The notes beneath the pieces were generated by a model, which saw only the letters and a list, made by a program, of their open reading frames with translations, had not been told where the DNA came from and did not search any database. From Candidatus Nezhaarchaeota archaeon WYZ-LMO8 (lineage in GTDB: Archaea; Thermoproteota; Methanomethylicia; Nezhaarchaeales; WYZ-LMO8): 37,089 nucleotides of DNA. The stretch is taken from NCBI GenBank assembly GCA_004347965.1, contig QNVF01000009.1, positions 1 to 37,089 of the forward strand, in the 5' to 3' direction. The position numbers were made by a program, and so were the translations under genes. This document shows, piece by piece, positions 6,237 to 37,089 of the stretch; positions within the stretch are counted from its first letter, which is position 1, and each line of letters opens with the position of its first letter.

Positions 6237-6922
6237 GTCCTACGTGCCAGTATCATTGCATGATCAACGTCGTAAGGCTCTAAGTGCACTACATGGACTA
6301 TTTCAAACCCTCCATCCCTTAAAGTCTCCATCTCCCTCTTGTAAACCTCTGAGGGCTCTTTAGTGACATCAATGCTTCTAGCCTTTATCGCTAGGAAAGC
6401 CCAACCACCTTTTTTGAGGTAAAAATCAGCATTGTCCACAAGAATCTTGCCTTGATAAGGTTGTGCAACGTCTTGGTATATGACATCTACCTCCTCCACT
6501 AGATGAGCATACTCAGCTGGTAAGCGTGCATCTGCTAGTATAGGTATGACATTTCTTCGGTGCTTAGCTACTCTCTCAAGGAACTCTCTCATAACCCTAG
6601 GGGAGAACTCTACACCATACACGCGCCCCTCAATACCGATTATATCAGAAACGTGGGAACATGTAGTTCCTGATGCTACTCCTAAATATAGAACCTTAAC
6701 GCCCTCGTTTAGAGGAGAAGTCTTTAGTCCCTTCATGAATGCTGCTGCAAGCTTAGATCTATAAGCATCCCATAGCCTAAGCTCCACAATTCCATGCTGG
6801 ATAAGGGTCTCGCCATAAACTTTGATTCCAGGAGCTAGATTGCGAGTTGCTAATCTTATACTACCATCATCCATCTCGACAACGTACACTCCACTTATAC
6901 TTTCGTGAGCTCTCACCTTCAC
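6233..6922 (-). CDS. flpA: Fibrillarin-like rRNA/tRNA 2'-O-methyltransferase
   Basis: LATRNLAPG..VYGE, RSKLAAA, VLYLGVASGTT.SHVSD, DVAQP, IKARSIDVT, LEPY..DH. Confidence 0.97.
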   Translation of the reverse strand: MKVRAHESISGVYVVEMDDGSIRLATRNLAPGIKVYGETLIQHGIVELRLWDAYRSKLAAAFMKGLKTSPLNEGVKVLYLGVASGTTCSHVSDIIGIEGRVYGVEFSPRVMREFLERVAKHRRNVIPILADARLPAEYAHLVEEVDVIYQDVAQPYQGKILVDNADFYLKKGGWAFLAIKARSIDVTKEPSEVYKREMETLRDGGFEIVHVVHLEPYDVDHAMILARRT

Positions 6923-13551: not shown

Positions 13552-14231
13552 AGGTAGCTTGTCTATGGAGTGGAGGTAAGGACAGCGCGTATGCTTGTTA
13601 CTTAGCTTTGAATATGGGCTTCGAGGTTAAGAGAATCGTCACCTTCCTCCCTCAAGATCCTGAATCTAAGCTTTTCCACGTACCTAACATTAAATGGACC
13701 ACTCTACAGGCTGAATCAATTAAGCTTCCTCAAGATATTATAAGCGTCCCAAAGAATTCTGAACGCGAAACCCTACATCAAGCTCTTTTGTGGTTAAAGA
13801 GCATGTATGGACTTGAAGGCATAGTTACGGGTGTGATAGCAAGTAACTATCAGAGGAGAGTATTGCAAGAGGTTTGTGATGAAGTTGGCTTGCAATTGAT
13901 AACCCCAATATGGGGGTGTGATCAATTTGAGCTGGTCCATAACATTATTCGTGAGGGGTTTAAGGCGATGATAGTTGGCGTCTATGCTGAAGGTTTAACA
14001 CAACAATGGTTAGGTAGAGAGGTGGACGAGACTTTCCTTAGGTATTTAAGAGAACTTTCAAGTACTTGGAGTATAAATCCATGTGGTGAGGGAGGAGAAT
14101 ACGAGACCTTCGTGGTTGATGCCCCCTACTTCACGAGGAGAGTGAAGGTATTAGATTACAAGGTTATGTGGTACAGGAATTGGGGTGAATTAATAATCTT
14201 AAACGCTATGTTAACTGAGAAAGAGAGCTGA
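13548..14231 (+). CDS. Diphthine--ammonia ligase (Dph6) family PP-loop ATPase
   Basis: SGGKDS, FHVPN, G.IASNYQ, P.W, PCGEGGEYETFVVDAP.F. Confidence 0.9.
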   Translation: MKVACLWSGGKDSAYACYLALNMGFEVKRIVTFLPQDPESKLFHVPNIKWTTLQAESIKLPQDIISVPKNSERETLHQALLWLKSMYGLEGIVTGVIASNYQRRVLQEVCDEVGLQLITPIWGCDQFELVHNIIREGFKAMIVGVYAEGLTQQWLGREVDETFLRYLRELSSTWSINPCGEGGEYETFVVDAPYFTRRVKVLDYKVMWYRNWGELIILNAMLTEKES

Positions 14232-21069: not shown

Positions 21070-22887
21070 TTGTGCGGAATTTTCGGCTGTACGTCGTTGA
21101 AGGAAGGGGTGTCAAAGCTCATTTACTCCTCGCTTAAGAGGTTAGAATACAGAGGATACGATTCTGTAGGTTTAGCTACAATATGTAATGGACATATCTT
21201 CTTGAAGAAGGATCAAGGGAAGGTAGAGGAAGTAGAGAGAAGATTAAGTCTTAGTGCATTACCTGGAAGGTGTGGGATAGGACATACTCGCTGGGCCACG
21301 CATGGAGCTCCCTCCAAGGAGAATGCACATCCTCTGACGGACTGTGAAGGCAAGGTGGCTGTGGCTCATAACGGCATCATCGAGAACTATTTAGAGTTGC
21401 GTAGCAAGCTAGGGGATTCAGGGCATAAGTTACGTTCTAGAACTGATAGCGAAATAATAGCGCACTTAATTGAGGAACTCCTCAATAAAGGTCTTACACT
21501 AGAAGAGGCTGTTAGGCAAGCAACATTAACGTTAAGGGGGTCATACGCCTTTGCAGTCATCTCGCCACTATGTGAAGATAAGATCGTTTGCGTCAGAATG
21601 GAAAGCCCATTAGTCATAGGTCTCTCACGAGACTATACCTGTCTCTCATCCGATATACCAGCCCTTCCTCCAGATGTGGAGAGCATTATAGTGATGAATG
21701 ATGGGGAGCTTGCTGTACTTACTCCTCACTCCATCGTCATTAGGGACTTGGAGTCTAATCAACAGCTACCACTTAGGATAGTGGCTAAAGAGAGCGTGAC
21801 GTGCCTAGCCGATCGAGGCGGCTTTACTCACTACATGATCAAAGAGATATTTGAGCAACCTCAAGCAGCTCTTAACGTTATCAATGCTCCTCGCTACTAC
21901 ATAGTTAAATTAGCTGAAGAGCTTGTTAAGTCTGATAGGGTTTACTTAATTGGTTGTGGAACATCATATCATGCATGTTTATTTGGCTCCTACGTCCTAC
22001 GCTCAATAGCTGATATTGACGCTCAACCAGTCATCGCATCAGAATTTAGCGAAAGCCACGTCAAGTTGGGGAAGGATGTAGCCATCCTTGCTATATCACA
22101 ATCAGGAGAGACGGCTGATGTACTACAAGTCCTGAGATCTTACGTGAACAAAGATGTTAAACTTCTAGCACTAACCAACGTTATGGGGTCCTCGATAACA
22201 AGGCTTGTATCTTCGTATGTTGGACTCTATGCTGGTCCAGAAATAGGTGTAGCAGCCACTAAAACGTTTATTGCAGAACTTTTAATGCTCACCAGAATAA
22301 GCATAGAAGTAGCTAGAATTAAGGGTGTAAATGTTGATCTCATCTCAGGTGTCGAGAGTATCCTAAGGTCTTCACCAAAGCTGATAGAGAGATCTCTCAC
22401 GCTTAATGAGCCCTTAGCCAAGAGTTTATCCGTTTACTTATCCTTAAAGAATAGTGCCTTCTTCTTAGCAAGAGGAGTAAACATAGTTACAGCCCTTGAG
22501 GGAGCTTTAAAGCTAAAGGAGATAAGCTATATTCACGCTGAAGGCTATCCTGCAGGAGAATCAAAGCATGGGCCCATAGCTCTCGTTGAAGAAGGTTTTC
22601 CATGCATCTTCGTATGTCCTCATGATGAAACTTACTACAAAATACTAGGCAACGTAATGGAGATGAAGGCTAGAGGAGCCTTTGTAATTTCATGCGTCGA
22701 GGAAGGTGATAAAGAAGTTAGAGAGACATCAGATAGGATCTTCGTTCTTCCGAAGATCGAAACTAAGCTTTTAACACCTATACTGCACGTAGTACCGCTT
22801 CAGCTCCTCGCTTATTACACAGCTATTGCTCGAGGTTACGACCCCGATAAACCTCGAAACCTCGCCAAGTCCGTTACAGTCCCTTAG
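21070..22887 (+). CDS. glmS: Glucosamine--fructose-6-phosphate aminotransferase (isomerizing)
   Basis: N-terminal CGIFG, LEYRGYDS, GHTRWATHG, HNGIIEN, SQSGETAD, ATKT, KLKEISY, KHGP, DKPRNLAKSVTV. Confidence 0.97.
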   Translation: MCGIFGCTSLKEGVSKLIYSSLKRLEYRGYDSVGLATICNGHIFLKKDQGKVEEVERRLSLSALPGRCGIGHTRWATHGAPSKENAHPLTDCEGKVAVAHNGIIENYLELRSKLGDSGHKLRSRTDSEIIAHLIEELLNKGLTLEEAVRQATLTLRGSYAFAVISPLCEDKIVCVRMESPLVIGLSRDYTCLSSDIPALPPDVESIIVMNDGELAVLTPHSIVIRDLESNQQLPLRIVAKESVTCLADRGGFTHYMIKEIFEQPQAALNVINAPRYYIVKLAEELVKSDRVYLIGCGTSYHACLFGSYVLRSIADIDAQPVIASEFSESHVKLGKDVAILAISQSGETADVLQVLRSYVNKDVKLLALTNVMGSSITRLVSSYVGLYAGPEIGVAATKTFIAELLMLTRISIEVARIKGVNVDLISGVESILRSSPKLIERSLTLNEPLAKSLSVYLSLKNSAFFLARGVNIVTALEGALKLKEISYIHAEGYPAGESKHGPIALVEEGFPCIFVCPHDETYYKILGNVMEMKARGAFVISCVEEGDKEVRETSDRIFVLPKIETKLLTPILHVVPLQLLAYYTAIARGYDPDKPRNLAKSVTVP

Positions 22888-23901
22888 ATCTTCTAAGATC
22901 TATGGTATCGAAGATGTCAGGCCCCGTGCTTATTATCGTTACGGGCACCTTCAATGTATTCTCTATCTCCTCTATGAACTTCTTAGCTTCACGAGGTAGC
23001 TTATCGTAATCCCTAATCTTTGAAGCTGTAGGGAACAATGTATCTACCCTTGTAAGAGCTATTTGAGTTGCACTATTAGCTAGAACTGCTCTTCTGGCTA
23101 AATCAAAGTTGAAGGGCGCTACCCTTCTCCTTCTTCCAGTTACGGTAGCAACCTCTATAAGCCCTCGCTTTTCGGCCTCCTCCTCTGAGAGCTCACCGAG
23201 AAGCGGTCCTCCACCAACTCTAGTTACATAGGACTTGAAGACGACGATCACTTCATCAACCATCTTTGGCCCTATACCCACCTCGCTGCAGATAGCTGAT
23301 GCAGTCGTATCTCGACTGGTGACGTATGGATAAGTCCCATGATAAAGGGAGAGGTAGTATCCTTGAGTTCCTTCAAGTAATACGTTGTGACCTTGCTGAT
23401 ACGTGTTCCACAATATCATAAGGACGTCGTCTAAATATTCCTCTAACTCCTTCACATCACGAGCAAGCTTAGCCACTCTTCTCACTCTATCAGCCATAGC
23501 TGCTCCAACTCCTTGTCCTGTTGAGCCTATCTTAGAGATCAAGTAAGCATCTTCTCTCTCCTTCTTCACGTGCTCGTCTTCGATTATGGATGCTTGAGGA
23601 TCTATCTTAAGCCTGTCCTTGGCTTTCGTTAGCTCTATCTCTTTCATTAAGACGTCTATCCTAATATTGGCTCCAGCCGCTATGCAGAGTATCGCATTGG
23701 GGTTTACGAACCCGCAAGGTATCATCCTCAACTTGTACTCTACACCATTATAAGTTACAGTATGACCTGCATTGACTGATCCAGTTCTTACGGCTACTCG
23801 AACATCGTCTCTTAATGATAGGTAGGCACAAATTTTTCCTTTTAGGGGGCTAACACCTTTCCCTCGTCTCCAAAGAAGCCTCCAACAACTACTGTTAGCA
23901 A
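22874..23901 (-). CDS. purA: Adenylosuccinate synthetase, intron-split: join(complement 23859..23901, 22874..23841), 336 aa after splicing
   Basis: Exon 1 from TTG at 23901 reads MLTVVVGGFFGDEG. Exon 2, in another frame, reads KGKICAYLS...RTGSVNAGHTV...GSTGQG...EGTQG...GTYPYVTS...TVTGRRRR...STGP. Removing 17 nt gives 1011 nt, fitting the short archaeal PurA. The ORF track sees only 22874..23731. Confidence 0.93.
23842..23858 (-). other. 17-nt BHB/BHL-type intron in purA mRNA (AGGUGUUAGCCCCCUAA)
   Basis: mRNA folds as AGGG-AA|A-GGU(GUUA)GCC-CCCU-AA|A: 4-bp helix AGGG/CCCU, two AAA bulges, 3-bp inner hairpin. Canonical cuts restore GAG GGA AAA GGA AAA (E-G-K-G-K). Confidence 0.88.
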
Positions 23902-24992
23902 GCCTCTAACCCCCAATAGGGTTTTAGAACTTCTTCGCAGACCTCACTTATCACTCTTAATCCTTCTGCTCTCACTTTATTGGTTGAAGAGGTTTCGGCT
24001 TCCCTTATTAGCGGCATGTTCGTGAAGTAAGCAACGATATTGTGTACCCCTTGTGCAAGCCCTGGACCATAGCCTCCTTCAAGTACGAAGATAGCTTTTC
24101 TTGTCACGTCCTCTTCTTTCAACCTCTTAACCAACTCAGCTATCTCTAGGAAGGAGTTCAGCGATAGGTTCATGGATGTTATTGGGTCATCTTTATGTGC
24201 ATCAAAGCCTGCAGACAATAACAATATCTCTGGCTTATACTTTCTGAGAACCTTGCTTACTACTTTGTTTAACACCTCTTTATATAAGTCGTCAGCAGTG
24301 AATGGAGGCAATGGGATGTTTATGTTATATCCTACACCCTCTCCTTCACCTACCTCATTGATAAACCCTGTACCAGGGTAAGCAGTTCTTCCATCCTGGT
24401 GGGTGCTTATGTACAACACCGATTTGTCATCGTAGAATATTTCTTGAGTTCCATTTCCGTGATGACAATCAAAGTCGAATATTGCTATTCGCGTTAATCC
24501 AATCTCGTTCACTAGATATTTTGCTGCTATGGCAACGTTGTTAAATAAGCAAAAACCTAAGGTCGGTGCTCCTAGAGCTGCTCCCGACTTGCCTGCGTGA
24601 TGCCCAGGAGGTCTTTCTAAGATGAAGCACACATCGTAATCTTCCTCTAAAACCTTCTTACACCCCAAGATTGCTGATCCTGCAGCATAAAGTGCTACTT
24701 CAAAACTTTCCTTTGATACTTGCGTGTCTGGATCTAAGTACCTCTTACCACTTGTAATGGCTCGTTCCACGTACTTAACGTATTCTTCATCGTGAACTGC
24801 AAGTACATCATCTATCGACGCCTTGACGGCCTTCTCAACTTTAACCTTAGACAGCACATTACCCTCCTTCAGCACCCTCATCACGTCTATTAGCCTTTGA
24901 GGTCTCTCAGGATGGTAAGGATCAGTATTGTGCTTCAAGAACACATCATCATAAACTATGCAAAGTGAGGAGTTACTCATTTCAAGCACCAA
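23895..24992 (-). CDS. Histone deacetylase (class I/II)-family Zn-dependent deacetylase
   Basis: HPERPQR, RPPGHHA, GFCLFNN, DFDCHHGNGTQE, YPGTG, SAGFDAH..DP, LEGGY. Confidence 0.94.
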   Translation of the reverse strand: MVLEMSNSSLCIVYDDVFLKHNTDPYHPERPQRLIDVMRVLKEGNVLSKVKVEKAVKASIDDVLAVHDEEYVKYVERAITSGKRYLDPDTQVSKESFEVALYAAGSAILGCKKVLEEDYDVCFILERPPGHHAGKSGAALGAPTLGFCLFNNVAIAAKYLVNEIGLTRIAIFDFDCHHGNGTQEIFYDDKSVLYISTHQDGRTAYPGTGFINEVGEGEGVGYNINIPLPPFTADDLYKEVLNKVVSKVLRKYKPEILLLSAGFDAHKDDPITSMNLSLNSFLEIAELVKRLKEEDVTRKAIFVLEGGYGPGLAQGVHNIVAYFTNMPLIREAETSSTNKVRAEGLRVISEVCEEVLKPYWGLEAC

Positions 24993-25057
24993 TCATTTCT
25001 CCGGCTTTAAACTTTAAATAAGCTTCTTGTCTCCTTGAGAAGCTGGTGCGTAGGTAA

Positions 25058-25690
25058 TTGAGCTCTAGGGTTGAATTAAAGCCTACGCGGATGGAGTTAA
25101 TAAACTTACGTAGAAGAAAAAGGTTAGCAGAAAGAGGTCTTGCCCTTCTGAAAGAGAAGCGTGACGCGCTAGTCATGGAGCTACTTTCTCTAGCTAAAGA
25201 ATACCAAACAGTTATGCTTGAAGTTAGGGAGAAGATGGAGAATGCGATGAGCTATCTAGCATTAGCAAAAGCTGATTTAGGTATGTATAAGCTTAATGAG
25301 ATCGTAGCAAGCCTGAAACCTCAAGTAACCATAGATGTTAAGTTTCGAAGCATAATGGGTGTAGTAACGCCTATGTTCAAAGTCTTGCCATCGGTAGACG
25401 CGAACACACCACCATACAACTTAATTGGCACATCATCCTACCTTGATGAAGCCACTAAAGCGTTTAGAGATGCCTTCATGTCAGTTATAAGACTTGCTGA
25501 AATTCAAGCCGTTGCAAGAAGGATAGCTGAAGAAGTTGAGAAAGCTAAGAGGAGAGTTAATGCTCTCGAGAACGTTGTCATACCAACGATAGAAAGGAAT
25601 ATCAAATACATAGAGCTGTACTTGGATGAGCGAGCTCGCGAAGACATTTTTCGATTAAGGCTTTTAAAGAAGAAGCGTGTAAGGAAGTGA
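25058..25690 (+). CDS. atpD: A/V-type ATP synthase subunit D
   Basis: PTRMEL..L, LLKEKRDAL, SIMGV..P, KRRVNALENV.IP, LDE..RE..FRL. Confidence 0.95.
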   Translation: MSSRVELKPTRMELINLRRRKRLAERGLALLKEKRDALVMELLSLAKEYQTVMLEVREKMENAMSYLALAKADLGMYKLNEIVASLKPQVTIDVKFRSIMGVVTPMFKVLPSVDANTPPYNLIGTSSYLDEATKAFRDAFMSVIRLAEIQAVARRIAEEVEKAKRRVNALENVVIPTIERNIKYIELYLDERAREDIFRLRLLKKKRVRK

Positions 25691-25695
25691 TGCTT

Positions 25696-26049
25696 TTACA
25701 TACCTCTTAAGTAAAGGATTGCTCGGGCAAGATCGCCCTTAGTCGCCTTCAATGCTTTCCTAGCCTCTTCGAGGCTTACACCTGCTTGAGAGGCAACGAG
25801 CTGAACATCTTCCTCAGATATGCTTACCTCTTCTACGACTAAAGATCTCTCCTCAACCTCACCAGTTACTTGAAATATTGTTTGATTTCCAACCTTCATG
25901 CTGGTTACTTGAGGATTCCTAATTACTATTTCTTTATCTCGAAGCCTAAATACGACACTTTCAACTCCCTCAACTTGTTCAATTGAAAGCCCAGCTTTCT
26001 TAACTACATGTAACATCTTCTGCAGTTCTCTTGGGCTTATCCCTTTCAC
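25696..26049 (-). CDS. nac: Nascent polypeptide-associated complex protein (archaeal NAC)
   Basis: NAC domain followed by a UBA-like tail EEDVQLVASQAGVS.EEARKAL..TKGDLARAI. Confidence 0.93.
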   Translation of the reverse strand: MKGISPRELQKMLHVVKKAGLSIEQVEGVESVVFRLRDKEIVIRNPQVTSMKVGNQTIFQVTGEVEERSLVVEEVSISEEDVQLVASQAGVSLEEARKALKATKGDLARAILYLRGM

Positions 26050-26545
26050 TCTCTACTCCCCTCCTAACTTTCACGGCTACGCCCGAATTAAATGCTCGCA
26101 TTTCGTAGCTTGATAGCAGGGCTCGACCAACAGCGAGCAAGTTGTCTTCTTCGTCCACTACAAGAACCTCATCTCCACAGCGAATTTCAGGGTCTACATC
26201 AACTACGTGCTTTGCAAAGACACTCCTTCCTCGCTTTATGAAATCTCTAATCTCATTCTTAACTACCACTCTAAGCTTTGGCCTCTTGAAGTGTTTTTGC
26301 AATATTCTAGCTCCTTCAATCGTTAAAGCTAGAAAGCCATCATTCCACCTGATTGTTGCTAAAAGCCTTCCTTCAGAGTCATACACGTACCGTGGCTTTC
26401 CAGTTCTCCTCGATGTCTCTACCTTCAGCCCCCTTGAGACTAGTGCTTCTCCAGCACCAGCTCCAAACTGATAGTCAGCTCGTACCTTCACCAGTCTTGC
26501 CAGAAACTCCTCATTCAAGCCAGCCACAATACATTTTAACTTCAA
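26000..26545 (-). CDS. PUA-domain RNA-binding protein (archaeosine TGT C-terminal-like)
   Basis: ADYQFG.GAG, S.RTGK.R, DG.L.LT..GA, GRSVFAKHV...D..IR.GDEVLVVDE...LLAVG, GVAVKVR. True start may be slightly downstream. Confidence 0.85.
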   Translation of the reverse strand: MKLKCIVAGLNEEFLARLVKVRADYQFGAGAGEALVSRGLKVETSRRTGKPRYVYDSEGRLLATIRWNDGFLALTIEGARILQKHFKRPKLRVVVKNEIRDFIKRGRSVFAKHVVDVDPEIRCGDEVLVVDEEDNLLAVGRALLSSYEMRAFNSGVAVKVRRGVESERDKPKRTAEDVTCS

Positions 26546-26583
26546 TCTGTAAATTAATACCTAGTCCCTAGGGGGCTAAAGGG

Positions 26584-27045
26584 TTGATATGTGAGCTTTG
26601 CGGCAAGCCGATAATCGGAAAGCCGATAAAATCTTGGATTGAAGGTGCGCAATTAACTGTATGCCACCGATGCTCTCGCTATGGCTCTACCGTAAAACCC
26701 GCTACTCAACGAGCTACTCTTCAACAATTACCAAAGCGTAGGGAGGTGAGGACAGAACTGGAGAACATGGTCTTAGTGGGCAACTACAATGTCCTCATTC
26801 GTCAAGCTAGAGAAAGCATGGGTTTAACTCAAGAAGATTTAGCGAGGTTAATAGGCGAAAAGGAGTCTATAATCCGAAGATTAGAAAGTGGTCGCATGAC
26901 ACCAACGTTAGAGCTGGCTAAAAAGCTTGAGAGATTATTGAAGATAAAGCTTTATGAGGAGGTTCGTCAGGAGCAAGAAGTGCCTAGACCTCAAAACTTT
27001 GAGTTAACGTTGGGCGATGTTGCAGTAATAAGAGAACGCAAATAA
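26584..27045 (+). CDS. Multiprotein bridging factor aMBF1
   Basis: Zn ribbon CELCG...VCHRC..YG, HTH IRQARE.MGLTQEDLA...EKES.I.R.E.G, C-terminal TLGD. Confidence 0.92.
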   Translation: MICELCGKPIIGKPIKSWIEGAQLTVCHRCSRYGSTVKPATQRATLQQLPKRREVRTELENMVLVGNYNVLIRQARESMGLTQEDLARLIGEKESIIRRLESGRMTPTLELAKKLERLLKIKLYEEVRQEQEVPRPQNFELTLGDVAVIRERK

Positions 27046-27066
27046 TCAAGGAATAATCCTCTATCG

Positions 27067-28158
27067 CTAACTTGACTGCATACTCAATTTTTCGACTATC
27101 TTCTTTAAAAGAAAGTCTACATTGACGTTCTTCTTAGCGCTTATAGGCACTAAGTCGCAACTAGGTGCTAAGCTCTTTGCGAGCCTTACTGAGTTCTCAA
27201 GCCTTGAATCACCTATCAAGTCCATCTTATTAATCGCTATAATCAAGGGTTTGTCACCACCTATCTCCGATATTATTGATAAGGAGCCTTTGAGCTTTCT
27301 ATCTATGGTCGAGGGGGCATCAGATGCATCGATGAGTAGCACTATTAAATCAGCCAATCTTAACTCCACTAGCGTGGCATGAAACGCATCAAGTATTAAT
27401 TGCGGCATTTCATCAATAAACCCAAGAGAATCGACAACTATGAAGCTTCTGCCATGAGCGTTAACCCTTCTAGCACATGTCTCAAGTGTAGTGAACGGTC
27501 CAAGCCCCGTTACTTTGCCCTCCTTCGTTAGAAGGTTGAATAGTGTGGTTTTACCGGATTGTGTGTAGCCAGCCAAAGCAACTATGGGGAGGTTTATCTT
27601 CTTACGTTGAAATACTGTCTTCTCTTGCTTCTTCTTCATGCTCTCTAACTTCTCCTCTATTATTTTAATCCTTCGTCGAGCAAAAGATAGGTAAGCTTTG
27701 TATGGATAGCCTCCAAGCGATCCAAAACCCATTTTTTCACTACCAAAACCTTTCAATCTTACAAGTTCTCGTGCCCACGGCAAGGTGTACCTTAGTCTCG
27801 CAAGCTCTATCTGAAGCTTTGCTTCAGATGTTGAAGCTCTTTTGTCAAAGACATTTAAGATTAAGAGGACTCTATCTAAGATGTCTACTTCAAGGCCTAG
27901 ATCTCTCTGCAATCTAAAGTATTGCCCAGGCTTTAGCTCATTGGCAAAGATCACCGTTTTGATGCCATATTTTCTTAGACTATCTTTAAGCTCTTGAAGC
28001 TTTCCTGGTCCTATTAGGTAGCTTGTGTGGGGTGTCTTCCTTATTTGAATGACTTTATTGACTATCAGGTACCCACTATTTCTTGCCAACTCTTCAATCT
28101 CTTTAAGCCTGAAGTCGTCTTTCATTGAGAAAACTCCAACTATCACTGCCTTCTCCAC
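27067..28158 (-). CDS. hflX: Ribosome-associated GTPase HflX
   Basis: IG.GKL.E, DR..LIL..F..RA.T.EAKLQIELA.L.Y, G1 GYTQSGKTT, FTTL, DSLGFI, AF.ATL.E, NKMD, ISA. Confidence 0.9.
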   Translation of the reverse strand: MEKAVIVGVFSMKDDFRLKEIEELARNSGYLIVNKVIQIRKTPHTSYLIGPGKLQELKDSLRKYGIKTVIFANELKPGQYFRLQRDLGLEVDILDRVLLILNVFDKRASTSEAKLQIELARLRYTLPWARELVRLKGFGSEKMGFGSLGGYPYKAYLSFARRRIKIIEEKLESMKKKQEKTVFQRKKINLPIVALAGYTQSGKTTLFNLLTKEGKVTGLGPFTTLETCARRVNAHGRSFIVVDSLGFIDEMPQLILDAFHATLVELRLADLIVLLIDASDAPSTIDRKLKGSLSIISEIGGDKPLIIAINKMDLIGDSRLENSVRLAKSLAPSCDLVPISAKKNVNVDFLLKKIVEKLSMQSS

Positions 28159-28165
28159 AACGTCG

Positions 28166-28717
28166 TCACCTTAAGATCTTGACCCTCTTACCTCTGCAGC
28201 TAGGCTCAATCTCGATTTTACCTCCTTCAAACTTTAAACCAAATTCCTTACCTTCGTAAAGCCAATCTAAGAATACTGCTATGGCAGCTACTTCACTGTG
28301 AGGTTGATTGGTTATGGAGACGTTGTAGTCAGCTACTTCGTAGAAGTACTTGGGTACTTTTGGACCCCCTACAAGTATCAGTAGCTTATCCTTACCTCTA
28401 ATTTCTCCTATAACTTGAGGAAGAGGAATGCCGTACATGGTCAGGTGAACTATGCAGAAACCCTTCATCTTTAGCTCCTTTATCGTACTTGGAACATTTA
28501 CTCCTGTTTTCGCAGCAAAGCTTCCACCAAACGTCTTATTTACTTGATATATTTTCTTCTCTATGTTTTCATCCTTCTCGTCAAACCAGGCTTCATGGGC
28601 TCCAAAGGCTCGAGCTACTAGTGCTAAGTGAGTACTTATTCTCCTATCTCTTACAGGTCTATGACCGTATCTTAACACGATAATCTTTCTCACACTCGTT
28701 GTTAACTGAGTCAGCAT
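28166..28717 (-). CDS. trm56: tRNA (cytidine56-2'-O)-methyltransferase Trm56
   Basis: VLRYGHRPVRDRRISTHLALVARAFGA, VHLTMYG, VGGPKVP, ADYNVSITNQPHSEVAA. Confidence 0.95.
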   Translation of the reverse strand: MLTQLTTSVRKIIVLRYGHRPVRDRRISTHLALVARAFGAHEAWFDEKDENIEKKIYQVNKTFGGSFAAKTGVNVPSTIKELKMKGFCIVHLTMYGIPLPQVIGEIRGKDKLLILVGGPKVPKYFYEVADYNVSITNQPHSEVAAIAVFLDWLYEGKEFGLKFEGGKIEIEPSCRGKRVKILR

Positions 28718-28761
28718 TTTTAAACTTGTTAGATCAGTGTAACCTTAGGTGGTAGAACTTC

Positions 28762-29289
28762 ATGGCCTTCATAGCATCAGCGCAGTACAGCGAAGAGTCT
28801 GTAGACGTATTATTGAGACTTATTGCTGTTCTTTCTGGTGAAGATGCTGTTAAGGTAGTTAAGGTGCTTTTAAACGAAAAAGAGGTGAGCGATGAAGTTT
28901 TAGCTGAAAAAACTGGGATGAGACTTAATCAGGTTAGGCGTATTCTGTACGACTTACTGGATAAGCACATAGTTACATATCGAAGAGAAGCTAGTGAGAG
29001 AGGAGGTTACCACCTCTACATATGGTCTTTGAATGGAGAGGGTCTAAGGAGGATGGTGAAGGAAAGGAAGGGGCACGTCCTCAACAGGTTGCGTGAAAGA
29101 CTCCTATACGAACAGCAAAACATGTTTTTTGTGTGCCCTAATGGTTGTAACGGGAGAGTGACCTTTGATAAAGCTATGGATCATCAGTTTAAGTGCTCTA
29201 AGTGTGGTGCCATTCTACAAAGCTTTGATAACTCTAAAATCATTGAGAAGTTGAGGTTAAGAATAGAGTCTCTGGAGAAAGATCCTTGA
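28762..29289 (+). CDS. tfe: Transcription factor E alpha subunit
   Basis: wHTH SDE.LAEKTG..LN.VRRILY.L, Y.W, Zn ribbon F.CPNGC...F..A....FKCSKCG..L...DN. Confidence 0.93.
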   Translation: MAFIASAQYSEESVDVLLRLIAVLSGEDAVKVVKVLLNEKEVSDEVLAEKTGMRLNQVRRILYDLLDKHIVTYRREASERGGYHLYIWSLNGEGLRRMVKERKGHVLNRLRERLLYEQQNMFFVCPNGCNGRVTFDKAMDHQFKCSKCGAILQSFDNSKIIEKLRLRIESLEKDP

Positions 29290-29394
29290 AGTTAGCATTG
29301 AATATATGTACTTTAAGCTTAAGGTGGTAAGATGATCAGTTAAAATACGTAAGGTTTATCTCGCCTTAAAGATGTAACGCAATTGTGGATTTTT

Positions 29395-31082
29395 ATGAAG
29401 TATATCTTCATTACGGGGGGTGTTTTATCAAGCGTAGGTAAGGGAGCAGTAACAGCTTCTATAGGCAAGATGCTCCAAGTCAGAGGTTTCTCAGTAACAG
29501 CAATAAAAATAGACCCATAGGCCTTATGGCCGGGTAAACATAAACGTTGATGCTGGAACAATGAACCCATAGGCTCTAGGCATACGCTTAGAGCCGGGCA
29601 TATATGCATGGTGAGGTCTTTGTAACAGAAGATGGTGGTGAGGTAGATCTTGATCTCGGTCATTATGAGCGCTTTCTCGATATAGAACTATCGAGGGACA
29701 ACAACATCACAACTGGTCAAGTGTACATGGCGGTGGTGGAGGCTGAGAGGAAGGGTAAGTACCTTGGCAAGTGTGTACAAATAATACCTCACGTAACTGA
29801 TGAAGTGAAGAGGAGGATACGATCCGTTGCTCAAAGAAGCAATGTAGATGTAACACTTGTGGAGTGTGGAGGTACGACAGGAGACATCGAAGGGCTTCCC
29901 TTCCTTGAAGCTATAAGGCAGATGAGGCTTGAGGAAGGCTTTTCAAACACGCTTTTCGTGCATGTTGCGTTAGTACCAATACTTGAAGTGACTGGAGAGT
30001 TCAAGACAAAGCCCCTTCAACATAGCGTGCAAGAGCTAAGGCGCATCGGTATACAGCCAGACATTATAGTGGCAAGGTGTAAACAGCAGCTTGATGAAGA
30101 TTCAAAAAAGAAGATAGCGCTTTATAGTAACGTCCCCGAGGAAGCGGTTTTCACATCTTACGACGTCGAATGCATATATGAACTGCCAATAGTACTAGAC
30201 GAACAGGGAATGGGCGACTACATATGTAAACGGTTAATGCTAAATGCTTCTAAAGCGAATTGGTCCTCATGGAGAGAGATAGTTAGAAGGCACAAGTTCT
30301 TTAGGTATGAAGTTGATGTCTGCATGTGTGGGAAGTACACAAAGTTAAAGGACTCCTACATAAGCATAATAGAAGCTCTAAAGCATGCAGGAGCTTTCCT
30401 TGAAACAAAGGTCAACATGATTTGGCTCGAAGCTACACAGCTTGAATGCGATAAGGGAATGCCTGAGGAGTATCAGAAGACTCTGAGCTATTGTGATGGC
30501 ATAGTGGTTCTACCAGGTTTCGGTGCACGAGGAGCTCAAGGAAAGATGACCGTCATCGAGTATGCTAGGAAGAACAAGATCCCGTTCTTGGGAATATGCT
30601 TTGGAATGCAATTAGCCGTTGTAGAGTTCGCAAGGAATGTGGTGGGTCTCAAAGATGCAAATACCACTGAGCTTGACCCTTCTACAAACCACCCAGTAGT
30701 AGACCTGCTGCCGGAGCAACACTATGTTAAGGAAATGGGAGGTACGATGAGACTGGGTGCTCAAGCTACTGTTCTTGAACCAGGGACGAAGGTCTATGAG
30801 CTCTATGGAAGACCTATAATATTTGAGAGACATAGACACAGGTATGAAGTAAACCCTGCTTACTGGTCATTGCTTCAGAGCTATGGTATGATTTTCTCAG
30901 GTTATAGCGTTGATAAGCGAAGAGTAGAATTCATAGAGCTCAAGGATCATCCATTTTTCATAGCTACTCAGGCACATCCAGAATTTAAGTCGAGACCTAA
31001 TAGACCGTCGCCTCTATACTACGGCTTCTTAAAGGCTTGTCTAGAGTACAAGCTAAAGAAGTCGATGGCCTCTAATAGCTAA
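29395..31082 (+). CDS. pyrG: CTP synthase, intron-split: join(29395..29518, 29538..29570, 29602..31082), 545 aa after splicing
   Basis: Exon 1 [17 protein letters not shown]...AIKIDP; exon 2 [11 protein letters not shown]; exon 3 [25 protein letters not shown]...GGTTGDIE...KTKP.QHS...GICFGMQ...ERHRHRYE...HPEF. Joined length is 1638 nt. The ORF track sees only 29604..31082. Confidence 0.94.
29519..29537 (+). other. 19-nt BHB-type intron 1 in pyrG mRNA (AGGCCUUAUGGCCGGGUAA)
   Basis: G-ACCC-AU|A-GGCC(UUAU)GGCC-GGGU-AA|A-C: perfect 4-bp helix ACCC/GGGU, two 3-nt bulges, 4-bp GC hairpin. Splicing gives GAC CCA UAC AUA AAC (D-P-Y-I-N). Confidence 0.9.
29571..29601 (+). other. 31-nt BHB-type intron 2 in pyrG mRNA (AGGCUCUAGGCAUACGCUUAGAGCCGGGCAU)
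   Basis: ACCC-AU|A-GGCUCUAGGC(AUAC)GCUUAGAGCC-GGGC-AU|A: 10-bp hairpin, central helix ACCC/GGGC with one A-C mismatch, AUA bulges. Splicing gives AAC CCA UAU AUG CAU (N-P-Y-M-H). Confidence 0.87.
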
Positions 31083-33583
31083 TACGAACCCTTGAGAGAA
31101 GAGTAAGCTCTCTCTATCCTGGTTATAAATCTTCTAGCTGCTTCCTCAGGGTTTGACGATCTTGTTATCGCTGAGCCAACAATTACTATCTTGCAACCTC
31201 TCTTAACTAGTTCATCCACGTGTTCGAGCCTTACACCACCTGCTACGGCTACTGGAACCTTTACGCTGTTCACTATTTCCTCTAAGAGCTCCATTTTCTT
31301 TGTCACATCTCTCTCCCTCATCTGCACACTTATACCCATATGGACGCAAATTATGTCGCATCCAAGTCTCTCTACTTCCTTTGCTCTAGATACGGGGTCC
31401 GGCACATTTATGAGGTCGCACATGATCTTGACGTTGTACTTTCGAGCAGCACCAACAGCGTCCTTGATAGTATAGTCATCAGTGGCGCCTAGCACTGTAA
31501 CTATGTCCGCTCCAGCTTCAGCAGCTAACTCAACTTCAAGCCAGCCAGTGTCAAACGTCTTTAAGTCGGCAACTATAGTAGCGTAGGGAAACCTTCTTCT
31601 AAACTCCCTTACTGCCTCTAAGCCAGCAGACTTTATGAGTGGTGTTCCAACTTCAAGAATCTCAGCTCCTCCTTTGTAGCATGCTTCAGCTATGCTTAGA
31701 CCATCCTTCAAGTATCTTTCATCTATCGCTACTTGAAGCTTAGGTCCTTTGTAAAGTGGTTCTAAGCCTAATTGCTGAAGTTTCTTGTCCATAGGTATTC
31801 CATTATAGTTCCAGCCTCTAATCATGTAGTAAGCGTCGAGCAGCCTCGTTAAATCAACTATTTCTCCTTTTGCAGCTCCTTCCTTCAATCCCTCGCTTAA
31901 GAACCTAGGAGGTAGAGTGTCGTGTGATCTATTGAACCCCTCCCTAACGTTAAACAGCCTTTCTAAGTTGTATATTCTCTCTCCTATCTTATAGAACTCT
32001 TCTTCATCAACGTAGAAACCTGTCGCCGTTGTTAATAGCCTTGCGTAATGCGTTGCCTCATAGGCTAATGTCGAGAATAAGGCGAGCATGGTGTACTTGC
32101 ACACCACTAAAGAGTCTATTACAGCTGAGACATCTTGCAATCTCTTAACGAGCTCGGCTTTACCTTCATAGGAGAGGGGGTCTATGTACCTTGGTATGCC
32201 CAGTATCTCACTCATCACTATGTAAGCTCTCAAGTGGCATCCCCCTCTATTGGATGTTGCGTAAGCCAAGGCCATGCCCTTTGCCCCTCGAGGATCGTAA
32301 GCCGGCAGCTCCAATCCTTTCACGTGAGCAGCTATACCCTCAGCACCTATCATCTTCGCTATTCGATCAACTCCCTCACTTGCAATTCTTCCTAGACCCC
32401 TCTTGCAGGCTGTGTCAACGATAAGCTTTAACAGTACGTCAGCATTACCAAAGCTTAGCTTTAAATTTACATCGCCAAGCCCTCTTAAAAGCCCCTTCTC
32501 ATAGCACTCCATTAAGAATCCTATAGTGTTTCCAATTGATATGGTGTCGAGACCTAGCTTGTTGCATAAGTCATTTGCTCGTGCTATGACGTTTATATCT
32601 GATATACCACAGTTAGGTCCCAAGGCCCATACGCTTTCATACTCAGGCCCTGAAGATACTACTTCCTCCTCTCCAACCTTGTATTTTATTGAGCGAGCGC
32701 AAGCTATCGGACATCCATAGCATGCGGTTCTTCTTACCAGCATGGTTTCAGTAATTCTCTCCCCACAAACCTCCTCTGCTTTATCGAAGAAACCTCGTGT
32801 AAAGTTATAGGATGGAAGAACTCCTGCCTTATTCATCAAGTGAACCAGAAACGCTGTGCCATAGCGTCCAAGGCTATCTCCAGTAATTGGGTTCCCTCTT
32901 AAGACCTCAAGTGTCTTCTTAACCTCTTCATTGAATGCTCTCGGGTTTGCAACCTTCACTTCACCGGTGCCCTTGACTGCTATGGCCTTTAACTTTTTAG
33001 AGCCCATGACTGCGCCCAAGCCGCCTCTACCAGCTGCTCTATGCTTATTGCTTATTATGCAAGCCATTCTAACCTGGTTCTCTCCAGCAGGACCTATGCA
33101 ACACACCTCGACCTTCTCAAGCCCCAACTCTCTTCTTATAGCATCCTCTGTAGCATCGGTTTCAAGTCCCCATATCTTGCTTGCATCTCGAATCTCAGCT
33201 TTACCGTCGTCGACCACCAAGTATACTGGGCTAGAGCTTCTACCTCTGATGATTATGCCGTCAAACCCAGCCTTCTTCAGTTCAGGTCCCCAGGATCCTC
33301 CACAGTTAGAGTCGAAGATCGTGTTAGTCAATGGAGACTTCGATGACACAACGAATCTACCTGATGCTGGAGCTCTAGTCCCTGTGAGCGGGCCGGTCAT
33401 AAATATTAGCACGTTATCCTCGCTCAGTGGATCAATACCCGGCTTTAAAGCGTCAAAGAGAAGCTTTGCTGAATACCCTCTACCGCCTATAAACTTCATT
33501 GCTACGTTCCAGTCGAGATCTACGACCGCTACGTCGCCTTTACTCAAGTCTACCTCTAGTATCCTGCCACTGTAACCACTCAA
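31079..33583 (-). CDS. Fusion: W/Mo aldehyde:ferredoxin oxidoreductase (aa ~1-613) + 3-hexulose-6-phosphate synthase-like TIM barrel (aa ~614-834)
   Basis: AOR motifs [70 protein letters not shown]. Then [51 protein letters not shown] (HPS/KGPDC family). Confidence 0.9.
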
Positions 33584-35525: not shown

Positions 35526-35831
35526 GAGGTGCCGGGAGAGGTCGGGTAACTCTCGGGTGCCTTAGCACCTGAGGAAAGTCCCCCTCCATCGGGGAGCGCG
35601 GCGCCGTAAGGTGTCAACCGAGAGGTTGGGGGTAAAGCCTAAGAAACGACACGTCCACTAGCACATGGCTATGATGGGCTTAAAACCTTGAGGACGCTAG
35701 TGGAATCGTTGAAACGTGGCGACCTCCGCGCGGAATAAGGCGTACCGTGATGAGGTCCCCGACGAGCGGTAAGCCGCATAGTCGAATGTTACCTAAACAG
35801 AAGGGGGATTACGAACCTCACCCGGCACCTC
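35526..35831 (+). ncRNA. rnpB: Archaeal RNase P RNA
   Basis: P1 GAGGTGCCGGG...CCCGGCACCTC; CR-I GAGGAAAGTCC (35571); AGAAAC and TGAAAC loops; CR-IV TAGTCGAATG; CR-V ACAGAAGGGGGATTA; K-turn-like TGATG/TGA elements. Confidence 0.95.

Positions 35832-36129: not shown

Positions 36130-37089
<960 letters not shown>

Follow-up and report, generated by a model that had tools for sequence, protein, structure and literature searches.

Short bulge-helix-bulge-type inserts, very probably introns, in purA, pyrG and other protein-coding genes of a Nezhaarchaeales genome

The window analysed here is a stretch of 37,089 nucleotides (nt) from Candidatus Nezhaarchaeota archaeon WYZ-LMO8 (contig QNVF01000009.1 of assembly GCA_004347965.1). 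It constitutes contig C78 of a 1.35 Mb Nezhaarchaeales metagenome-assembled genome (MAG) of 78 contigs, 93% complete and with 43.5% G+C. Two of its genes, purA on the minus strand and pyrG on the plus strand, are single-copy in the genome and are interrupted by three short inserts, one in purA and two in pyrG, which are putative introns of the archaeal bulge-helix-bulge (BHB) type. The closest named records of both genes belong to Candidatus Nezhaarchaeota or Nezhaarchaeales MAGs, with 80-88% protein identity. The two loci are organized as follows, H' designating the insert strand that pairs with a strand H of the preceding exon.

22874..23841, minus strand: purA exon 2 (adenylosuccinate synthetase), including the stop; Pfam Adenylsucc_synt, E 2.7e-68
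23842..23858, minus strand: putative purA micro-intron, 17 nt; A, hairpin GGT-GTTA-GCC, H' CCCT, AA
23859..23901, minus strand: purA exon 1; begins with TTG (23901-23899), comprises 14 codons and one further nt, and closes with GDEG-K
29395..29518, plus strand: pyrG exon 1; MKYIF...IDP and the first nt of a Tyr codon; Pfam CTP_synth_N 1-40
29519..29537, plus strand: putative pyrG intron 1, 19 nt; A, hairpin GGCC-TTAT-GGCC, H' GGGT, AA
29538..29570, plus strand: pyrG micro-exon 2, 33 nt, 11 codons; finishes the Tyr codon and ends with the first nt of the next Tyr codon
29571..29601, plus strand: putative pyrG intron 2, 31 nt; A, 10-base-pair (bp) hairpin GGCTCTAGGC/GCTTAGAGCC, H' GGGC, AT
29602..31082, plus strand: pyrG exon 3, through the stop; finishes the Tyr codon and continues with MHGEVFVT...; Pfam CTP_synth_N 54-265 and GATase

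The three inserts are built on a common plan, in which the 4-nt exon strand H is followed by a 3-nt bulge, the hairpin of the insert, the 4-nt strand H' and a second 3-nt bulge. In purA, exon 1 includes H (AGGG, 23864-23861) and the first two nt of the first bulge; both bulges read AAA (23860-23858 and 23843-23841), and H' (CCCT) covers 23847-23844 of the minus strand. The two pyrG sites share the H strand ACCC (29513-29516 and 29565-29568), with bulges ATA (5') and AAA (3') at the first site and ATA on both sides at the second. H and H' pair fully in purA and at the first pyrG site, and at three of four positions at the second. On the coding strand, purA runs from its TTG start through LTVVVGGFFGDEGK and the 17-nt insert to GKICAYLS, while the first pyrG exon translates as MKYIF...AIKIDP up to intron 1. 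Cutting after the second nt of each bulge removes 17, 19 and 31 nt and yields GDEGK/GKI, DPY/INVD and NPY/MHGEVF (the slash marks the junction); these junctions may slide by 1-2 nt, owing to A or TA runs. The micro-exon of pyrG corresponds to the Pfam gap between CTP_synth_N positions 40 and 54 and is recovered by tblastn as a separate piece (q47-56), homologues elsewhere being contiguous over the same stretch. In both pyrG inserts, a stop directly follows the last sense codon (CCA TAG). The original prediction had proposed three inserts of one design in purA and pyrG, as well as a cut after the second bulge nt that restores the frame and a conserved motif; its coordinates are correct to the nucleotide, and the cut holds at all three sites.

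Four further introns of the same design lie beyond the window, giving at least seven introns in six genes of this 1.35 Mb genome.

C1:76635-76656, minus strand: cbf5 intron, 22 nt; junction G/AC in the catalytic Asp codon of GGTLDP; found with the strict descriptor
C77:23751-23782, plus strand: aIF2-gamma intron, 32 nt; splits DCPGHE/MLMATML; found with the strict descriptor
C72:142-170, plus strand: ribosomal protein S5 (rpS5) intron, 29 nt; full canonical BHB; found in the split-alignment census
C11:16109-16130, minus strand: hypD intron, 22 nt; found in the split-alignment census

The strict descriptor demands three G-C pairs in H and A-N-A bulges. It returns 46 hits genome-wide, five of which are real, and two of these (cbf5 and aIF2-gamma) are new. 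The census, a split alignment against the single-contig relative G016, finds the cbf5, aIF2-gamma and both pyrG introns again without any structural prior, and adds those of rpS5 and hypD. By construction, it is blind to introns common to both genomes and to genes lacking a G016 homologue; the purA site is occupied by an intron in G016 as well, which is why purA was missed and why seven is a lower bound. In Pfam searches, the two aIF2-gamma pieces cover GTP_EFTU 4-80 and 85-187, and in cbf5 TruB_N resumes at position 17 after the intron; in each gene the pieces are thus consecutive parts of one domain. At least one strict-descriptor hit is a false positive (C2:16357-16384), whose unspliced reading, AIARGGFAPARLL, is the true motif. 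A further candidate, C12:86179-86221, was discarded as an antisense open reading frame (ORF) spanning a gene boundary.

The cbf5 intron serves as a positive control. In Crenarchaeota, it is placed after the first and before the second letter of the catalytic Asp codon and is cut between the second and third residues of the bulges (PMC2738675; this article, PMC5829648 and PMC10485636 are each cited throughout for individual passages). The intron of the present genome occupies that published site and has the same design, and the published cut rule is also the one that restores the frames of purA and pyrG. Applied in silico, it recovers conserved motifs and continuous Pfam domains at both pyrG sites and in purA, cbf5, aIF2-gamma, rpS5 and hypD, and the spliced products match the sequences of intron-less orthologues.

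A BHB motif comprises two 3-nt bulges with a 4-bp helix between them, and the relaxed forms HBh', hBH and BHL miss part of it, as set out in a section of PMC5829648. The 4-bp H/H' helix with a 3-nt bulge on the 5' strand is found in all seven introns. Only in rpS5 is the 3' bulge closed by an outer helix (3 bp), resulting in a canonical BHB, while purA and both pyrG sites have an outer helix of 0-1 bp and belong to the relaxed HBh' form. The larger set also shows which parts of the originally proposed descriptor are general. Hairpin ends of the GGY..GCC kind are not, the hairpins of the other four introns starting with GCTC, TTGC, CCGC and CGGG; neither is the "AW" following H', which corresponds to the first two (intronic) nt of the second 3-nt bulge.

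Conservation of the introns was followed, gene by gene, in 30 related genomes from eight families (f1-f8), f1 being the family of the window. The purA intron is found in 10 of 10 f1 genomes and six of six f5 genomes, and in none of the other 14 genomes fetched. Sites 1 and 2 of pyrG are occupied in all 10 f1 genomes and in no other of the eight families; site 1 is also occupied in one record titled Bathyarchaeia. The aIF2-gamma intron is restricted to f1 (10/10), the gene being a full-length open frame in 21 other genomes, nine of which were read and are contiguous. That of rpS5 is found in 10 f1 and four f3 genomes, and that of hypD in nine f1 genomes and in three single genomes outside f1 (one of four assessed in f4, one of two in f7, and f8). 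The cbf5 intron occurs in 21 of the 30 genomes, in all families save f5 and f6. Within the family, protein identity of the exons is 73-93%. Where relatives have no intron, their sequence corresponds exactly to the predicted junctions: in public sets, 68 of 78 pyrG loci continue without interruption across the junction as predicted, 39 of 45 purA loci from other lineages are uninterrupted through GDEGKGK, and the same holds for intron-less orthologues of the other host genes. Insert lengths vary among relatives, with 16-18 nt in purA, 19, 19, 20, 20, 21 and 27 nt at pyrG site 1, 30-33 nt at pyrG site 2 (10 genomes), 31-35 nt in aIF2-gamma, 22-34 nt in rpS5 and 20-28 nt in hypD. Across the seven introns the range is 16-35 nt, and differences between close relatives are often not multiples of three. 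Both the purA insert and those of pyrG are kept in the 10 family genomes examined, with sequence differences of their own, and no intact extra copy of either gene exists in the genome, all of which agrees with the original prediction.

Other families carry inserts at related positions. A third pyrG site (SVGK/GVV) is occupied in f4, f7 and f8, with the pattern GGGG-AAA-hairpin-CCCY-ARA (L006, L011 and L058, at about 1070-1110 in each locus). Its carriers (G015, G018, G021, G025, G023, G029 and G027) lack sites 1 and 2, and some of the records are titled Methanomethylicia or Culexmicrobium. The Bathyarchaeia-titled record (L070) has only site 1, just upstream of 1201, as ACCC-ATA-GGCTG-GAAA-CAGCC-GGGG-AAA; its lineage is distant from the window family, which suggests an independent gain or an ancient origin. 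The purA introns of f5 (G016:C1 near 1176575, the same as L219, and G019, G024, G026, G028 and G030) lie at the same GKGK site, with unrelated longer hairpins, and these genomes have no cbf5 intron.

Covariation is clearest in rpS5. Run without guidance on 14 genomes, RNAalifold predicts the fold helix(3)-bulge(3)-helix(4)-bulge(3)-hairpin, in which 8 of 16 pairs have undergone compensatory changes. In this alignment 97.3% of cells are paired, versus 15.9-42.6% when the partners are slid, and none of 500 shuffles reaches the observed covariation. H/H' reads ACAG/CTGT in two genomes and ACGG/CCGT in 12; on the exon side, the change from ACA to ACG leaves Thr unaltered, and the intron strand changes along with it. 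The H(4)-bulge(3)-hairpin fold is also returned for hypD, aIF2-gamma and the second pyrG intron, with compensatory changes in 4/12 pairs for hypD and 2/14 for aIF2-gamma. In hypD, the intronic nt of the 3' bulge vary (AC, AT, AG, AA) and, read as part of a codon, would encode T, I, S, N or K, while the spliced codon is always Thr, matching intron-less relatives. The purA stem has variants among relatives as well (GGT/GCC, GGT/ACC and GGC/GCC). The design as such is not rare, and the window sites stand above chance through their conservation, their variation in length and the covariation observed among relatives.

The genome also encodes the enzymes that such introns would need. It possesses two EndA homologues, an alpha subunit of 185 residues at L001:1228-1782 and a beta subunit of 178 residues at L002:1477-2010. 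For the former, the nearest match is the catalytic subunit of the heterotetrameric Aeropyrum pernix enzyme (3p1z_B, E 1e-49), with an alignment that spans the Crenarchaea-specific loop and places a Lys opposite K44 of the A. pernix enzyme (APE). In the latter, the His of the catalytic triad is replaced, and it matches structural subunits too. Parts of PMC5829648 report that the specific-loop lysine (APE K44) confers a broad substrate range and that (alpha-beta)2 enzymes with this loop cut relaxed HBh' substrates. The type of EndA, to which the original prediction had drawn attention, would accordingly by homology be a two-subunit enzyme able to cut relaxed motifs. RtcB is represented by an open frame of 492 residues (PF01139, E 4.7e-181). 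With its intron option, ARAGORN marks 16 among the tRNA calls listed as intron-bearing, some at non-canonical positions. Two calls appear spurious, their introns measuring 875 and 963 nt.

Taken together, the anatomy of the inserts and the restored frames, their conservation and covariation, the enzymes encoded in the genome and the cbf5-like design provide computed support for the three inserts being BHB-type micro-introns of pre-mRNAs, cut by EndA and joined by RtcB, which we consider very probable. The same conclusion had been drawn in the original prediction, and geometry, frame, machinery and the cbf5 precedent all point the same way. In the transcript, the exon strand H would pair with the intron strand H' just before the 3' junction to form a 4-bp helix. 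The GC-rich intron hairpin would stack on one end of this helix, leaving a 3-nt bulge on each strand. The two-subunit EndA would then cut after the second nt of each bulge, and RtcB would ligate the exons, thereby restoring the purA and pyrG frames, while unspliced RNA would run straight into a stop codon. Cleavage and ligation of the window inserts in vivo are predicted from these data, and geometry and homology designate EndA and RtcB as the likely agents.

Several observations weigh against this assignment. Five RNA runs were found, four of which were mapped over 22800-31100. The metatranscriptome contigs (X1) provide 25 pieces in this region, none crossing any insert in spliced or unspliced form, and the raw-read runs X2, X3 and X4 provide 0, 0 and 3 reads, an outcome that speaks neither for nor against splicing. 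Covariation among the window introns is scant, with 2/14 compensatory pairs for the second pyrG intron, and the purA stem is 3-4 bp long. When sequences are folded singly, the purA region is no better than shuffles (z +0.18) and the first pyrG intron is weak (z -1.46), so that the case rests on comparison rather than on thermodynamics. Six of the seven introns have no outer helix, leaving the 3' cut site defined on one side only, and cleavage of relaxed motifs by the EndA of this very organism is a prediction. Finally, a loose structure descriptor is not enriched genome-wide, with 3642 hits against 3718 in reversed and 3689 in shuffled sequence.

Two features of the X1 set concern pyrG. One contig matches 29201-29514 (314 nt, 2 mismatches) and ends four nt before the predicted 5' splice site of intron 1, an end that could be accidental or could mark a branch of the assembly graph where spliced and unspliced RNA diverge. 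The only joint near the inserts, from 29568 to 29607, was considered as spliced pyrG and rejected: it has seven foreign letters and a 22-nt side, and derives from the uninterrupted pyrG of another organism.

The most serious rival, itself very improbable, is translational recoding, in which the ribosome frameshifts or hops over the insert, with the hairpin as a stimulator and the RNA left uncut. Its model is the bypass of T4 gene 60, where the coding sequence contains a short untranslated gap that opens with a stop codon and a hairpin; the bypass needs matched take-off and landing codons, and the RNA stays intact. The stop that follows the last sense codon in both pyrG inserts is reminiscent of gene 60, purA offers AAG (Lys) for take-off and AAA for landing, and in pyrG a +1 shift at the first TAG leads into a frame that continues to INVD. 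However, the gene 60 requirements do not fit pyrG: matched codons are absent at both of its inserts, which leaves purA (AAG/AAA) as the only possible case, and the conserved Tyr would be lost. Frameshifting fares no better, the target frame of pyrG exon 3 being closed by a TAG inside intron 2. Furthermore, close relatives differ by 1-8 nt in insert length with no change of junction, and the covariation of an exon nt with an intron nt four bp from each junction is a property of BHB motifs that is needless for hopping. The inserts also share the design of the cbf5 intron, the splicing of which is documented experimentally in passages of PMC2738675 and PMC10485636.

Decay is a fainter prospect still: purA and pyrG would be pseudogenes broken by small palindromic DNA insertions, such as footprints of miniature inverted-repeat transposable elements, in a reduced genome. 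The inserts are indeed small inverted repeats that break the frame or add stops, the genome is small (1.35 Mb), and plain 1-2-nt frameshifts occur elsewhere in the assembly. Against this, purA, pyrG, aIF2-gamma, rpS5 and cbf5 are core genes, the first two of them single-copy; exon proteins have kept their 73-93% identity in 10 genomes, with mostly synonymous drift, and a second disabling lesion was not seen in any exon examined. The inserts lie at identical nt in every family member, no target-site duplications are found whose removal would restore the frame, and in rpS5 changes in H on the exon side are accompanied by changes on the intron side. A target-site-duplication model (CATA) was tried for the pyrG inserts and rejected, excision of the insert and one repeat yielding a stop codon.

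Similarly remote is excision at the RNA level by other machinery, through another nuclease or ligase or by a cut that a guide RNA directs. The outer helix is missing from six of the seven motifs, and the role given to EndA and RtcB rests on geometry and homology. On the other hand, the geometry, the cut positions, the loop-bearing alpha subunit, the beta subunit and RtcB all fit EndA, and cutting of relaxed HBh' motifs is what PMC5829648, in the passages cited, attributes to (alpha-beta)2 enzymes with the loop. An assembly or sequencing artefact is scarcely credible, for although the genome is a 78-contig MAG, the inserts recur, with their own sequence differences, in several independent MAG records and in all 10 family genomes.

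The original prediction had further suggested that many mRNAs are spliced in this lineage. At least seven introns in six genes go in this direction, but there is no statistical excess of further candidates. The proposed genome-wide scan succeeded in its strict form, by revealing the cbf5 and aIF2-gamma introns, and not in its loose form, which does not rise above controls. ORF-joining and codon-score filters, compared with shifted-cut controls, yield 358 versus 315-348, 157 versus 131-145, 6403 versus ~6240-6450, 13928 versus ~13600-14030 and 123 versus 119-129 candidates, without excess. Gene boundaries swamp the signal, and the total number of introns is therefore not derivable from ab initio scans. 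The lack of excess in both structure- and coding-based scans nevertheless indicates a small total, perhaps from seven to a few tens of introns in the genome, not hundreds. With at least seven introns in 1.35 Mb and no excess of candidates, the three introns of the 37-kb window are a chance cluster.

Endonuclease-dependent mRNA introns are already known in archaea. In Aeropyrum, Sulfolobales and Desulfurococcales, the cbf5 intron is, like those described here, a short and mostly relaxed BHB-type intron of a protein gene, cut between the second and third bulge nt by a hetero-oligomeric EndA, according to the pertinent passages of PMC2738675. It is placed in the codon of a catalytic residue, and the present genome has the same intron at the same position. 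The present introns differ in their hosts, which are purA, pyrG (where two introns enclose a micro-exon of 11 codons), aIF2-gamma, rpS5 and hypD, in their lineages (Nezhaarchaeales and neighbouring families rather than Sulfolobales or Desulfurococcales), and in being known from DNA alone. The second example is HVO_1309 of Haloferax volcanii, whose mRNA is cut by the tRNA splicing endonuclease and whose spliced form is seen in RNA-seq (in a passage of PMC10485636); it is likened to the present introns by description, and differs in that its host is a euryarchaeon with a homodimeric enzyme. Within the full-text literature outside subscription journals and supplements, cbf5 and HVO_1309 are the only spliced archaeal mRNAs found, and no intron reports were found for purA, pyrG, aIF2-gamma, rpS5 or hypD. 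Older, unconfirmed predictions are present as citations only, a Sulfolobus book chapter and a rudivirus paper in the reference list of PMC2738675. What appears new from the sequences is thus the host genes and the lineages, EndA-type mRNA introns being known already. A 2023 review had anticipated, in one passage, that more endonuclease-dependent archaeal mRNA introns were likely to turn up (PMC10485636).

The non-canonical tRNA introns of TACK archaea (HBh', hBH, BHL) have the same relaxed motif, size range and loop-bearing type of enzyme, as far as the relevant portion of PMC5829648 goes, the size range being given as 11-175 nt in PMC2738675. The tRNA genes of the present genome are intron-rich. 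Unlike tRNA introns, however, those considered here lie in mRNAs, where no tRNA body aids recognition, and their position is set by codons of conserved motifs.

A more distant parallel is the splicing of HAC1/XBP1 in eukaryotes, in which IRE1 excises a short mRNA intron at stem-loops, tRNA ligase or RtcB joins the ends, and the frame changes. The pair RtcB and XBP1 is named in the abstract of PMC8718801. The eukaryotic process differs by its endonuclease and its RNA motif, is stress-regulated, and is not homologous at the level of the intron.

A very small class, so far represented by cbf5 and HVO_1309, would in this way be widened by at least seven introns in six core genes of one small genome, and by other sites in related families. 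Gene callers would describe the host genes as truncated, frameshifted or pseudogenes. Metabolic reconstruction of uncultured Thermoproteota would be distorted, since the synthesis of purines and pyrimidines, the initiation of translation and the maturation of hydrogenases would all appear broken. The eight families also form a compact comparative system for intron gain and loss in protein genes, with tRNA splicing as the only machinery.

A doubtful extension is that the micro-introns form a mobile population in turnover rather than static relics. The exon hexamer ACCC-AT is common to both pyrG sites of the window, and GGGG/AGGG-AA to purA and pyrG site 3; along with an occupancy that differs between sister families, these shared hexamers hint at repeated gain at sites able to pair with H'. 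Introns might spread by a reversed EndA/RtcB reaction into transcripts that can pair with the intron H' or, alternatively, by insertion at the RNA level followed by reverse transcription, and might persist preferentially where they interrupt codons of motifs that are indispensable. The tRNA-splicing system would in that case drive a cycle of intron gain and loss in archaeal protein genes.

Other features of the genome and the window are the following. Three plain frameshifts without insert (-1, -2 and +1 nt) are found at C77:4372-4378 (plus strand), within the Walker A motif of an ABC ATPase, C77:20654-20655 (minus strand) and C6:6017-6027 (minus strand); they could reflect errors of assembly, genuine pseudogenes or recoding, and are not BHB introns. 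At 23895-23901 of the window, the stop of an upstream deacetylase-like gene overlaps the purA start (TTGCTAA, minus strand), and the two genes are on this basis probably co-transcribed and translationally coupled. Towards the end of the window lie an archaeal RNase P RNA (35534-35823, 180 bits) and a 16S rRNA gene (36130-37089), represented by its 5' 937 model positions and cut off by the contig end.

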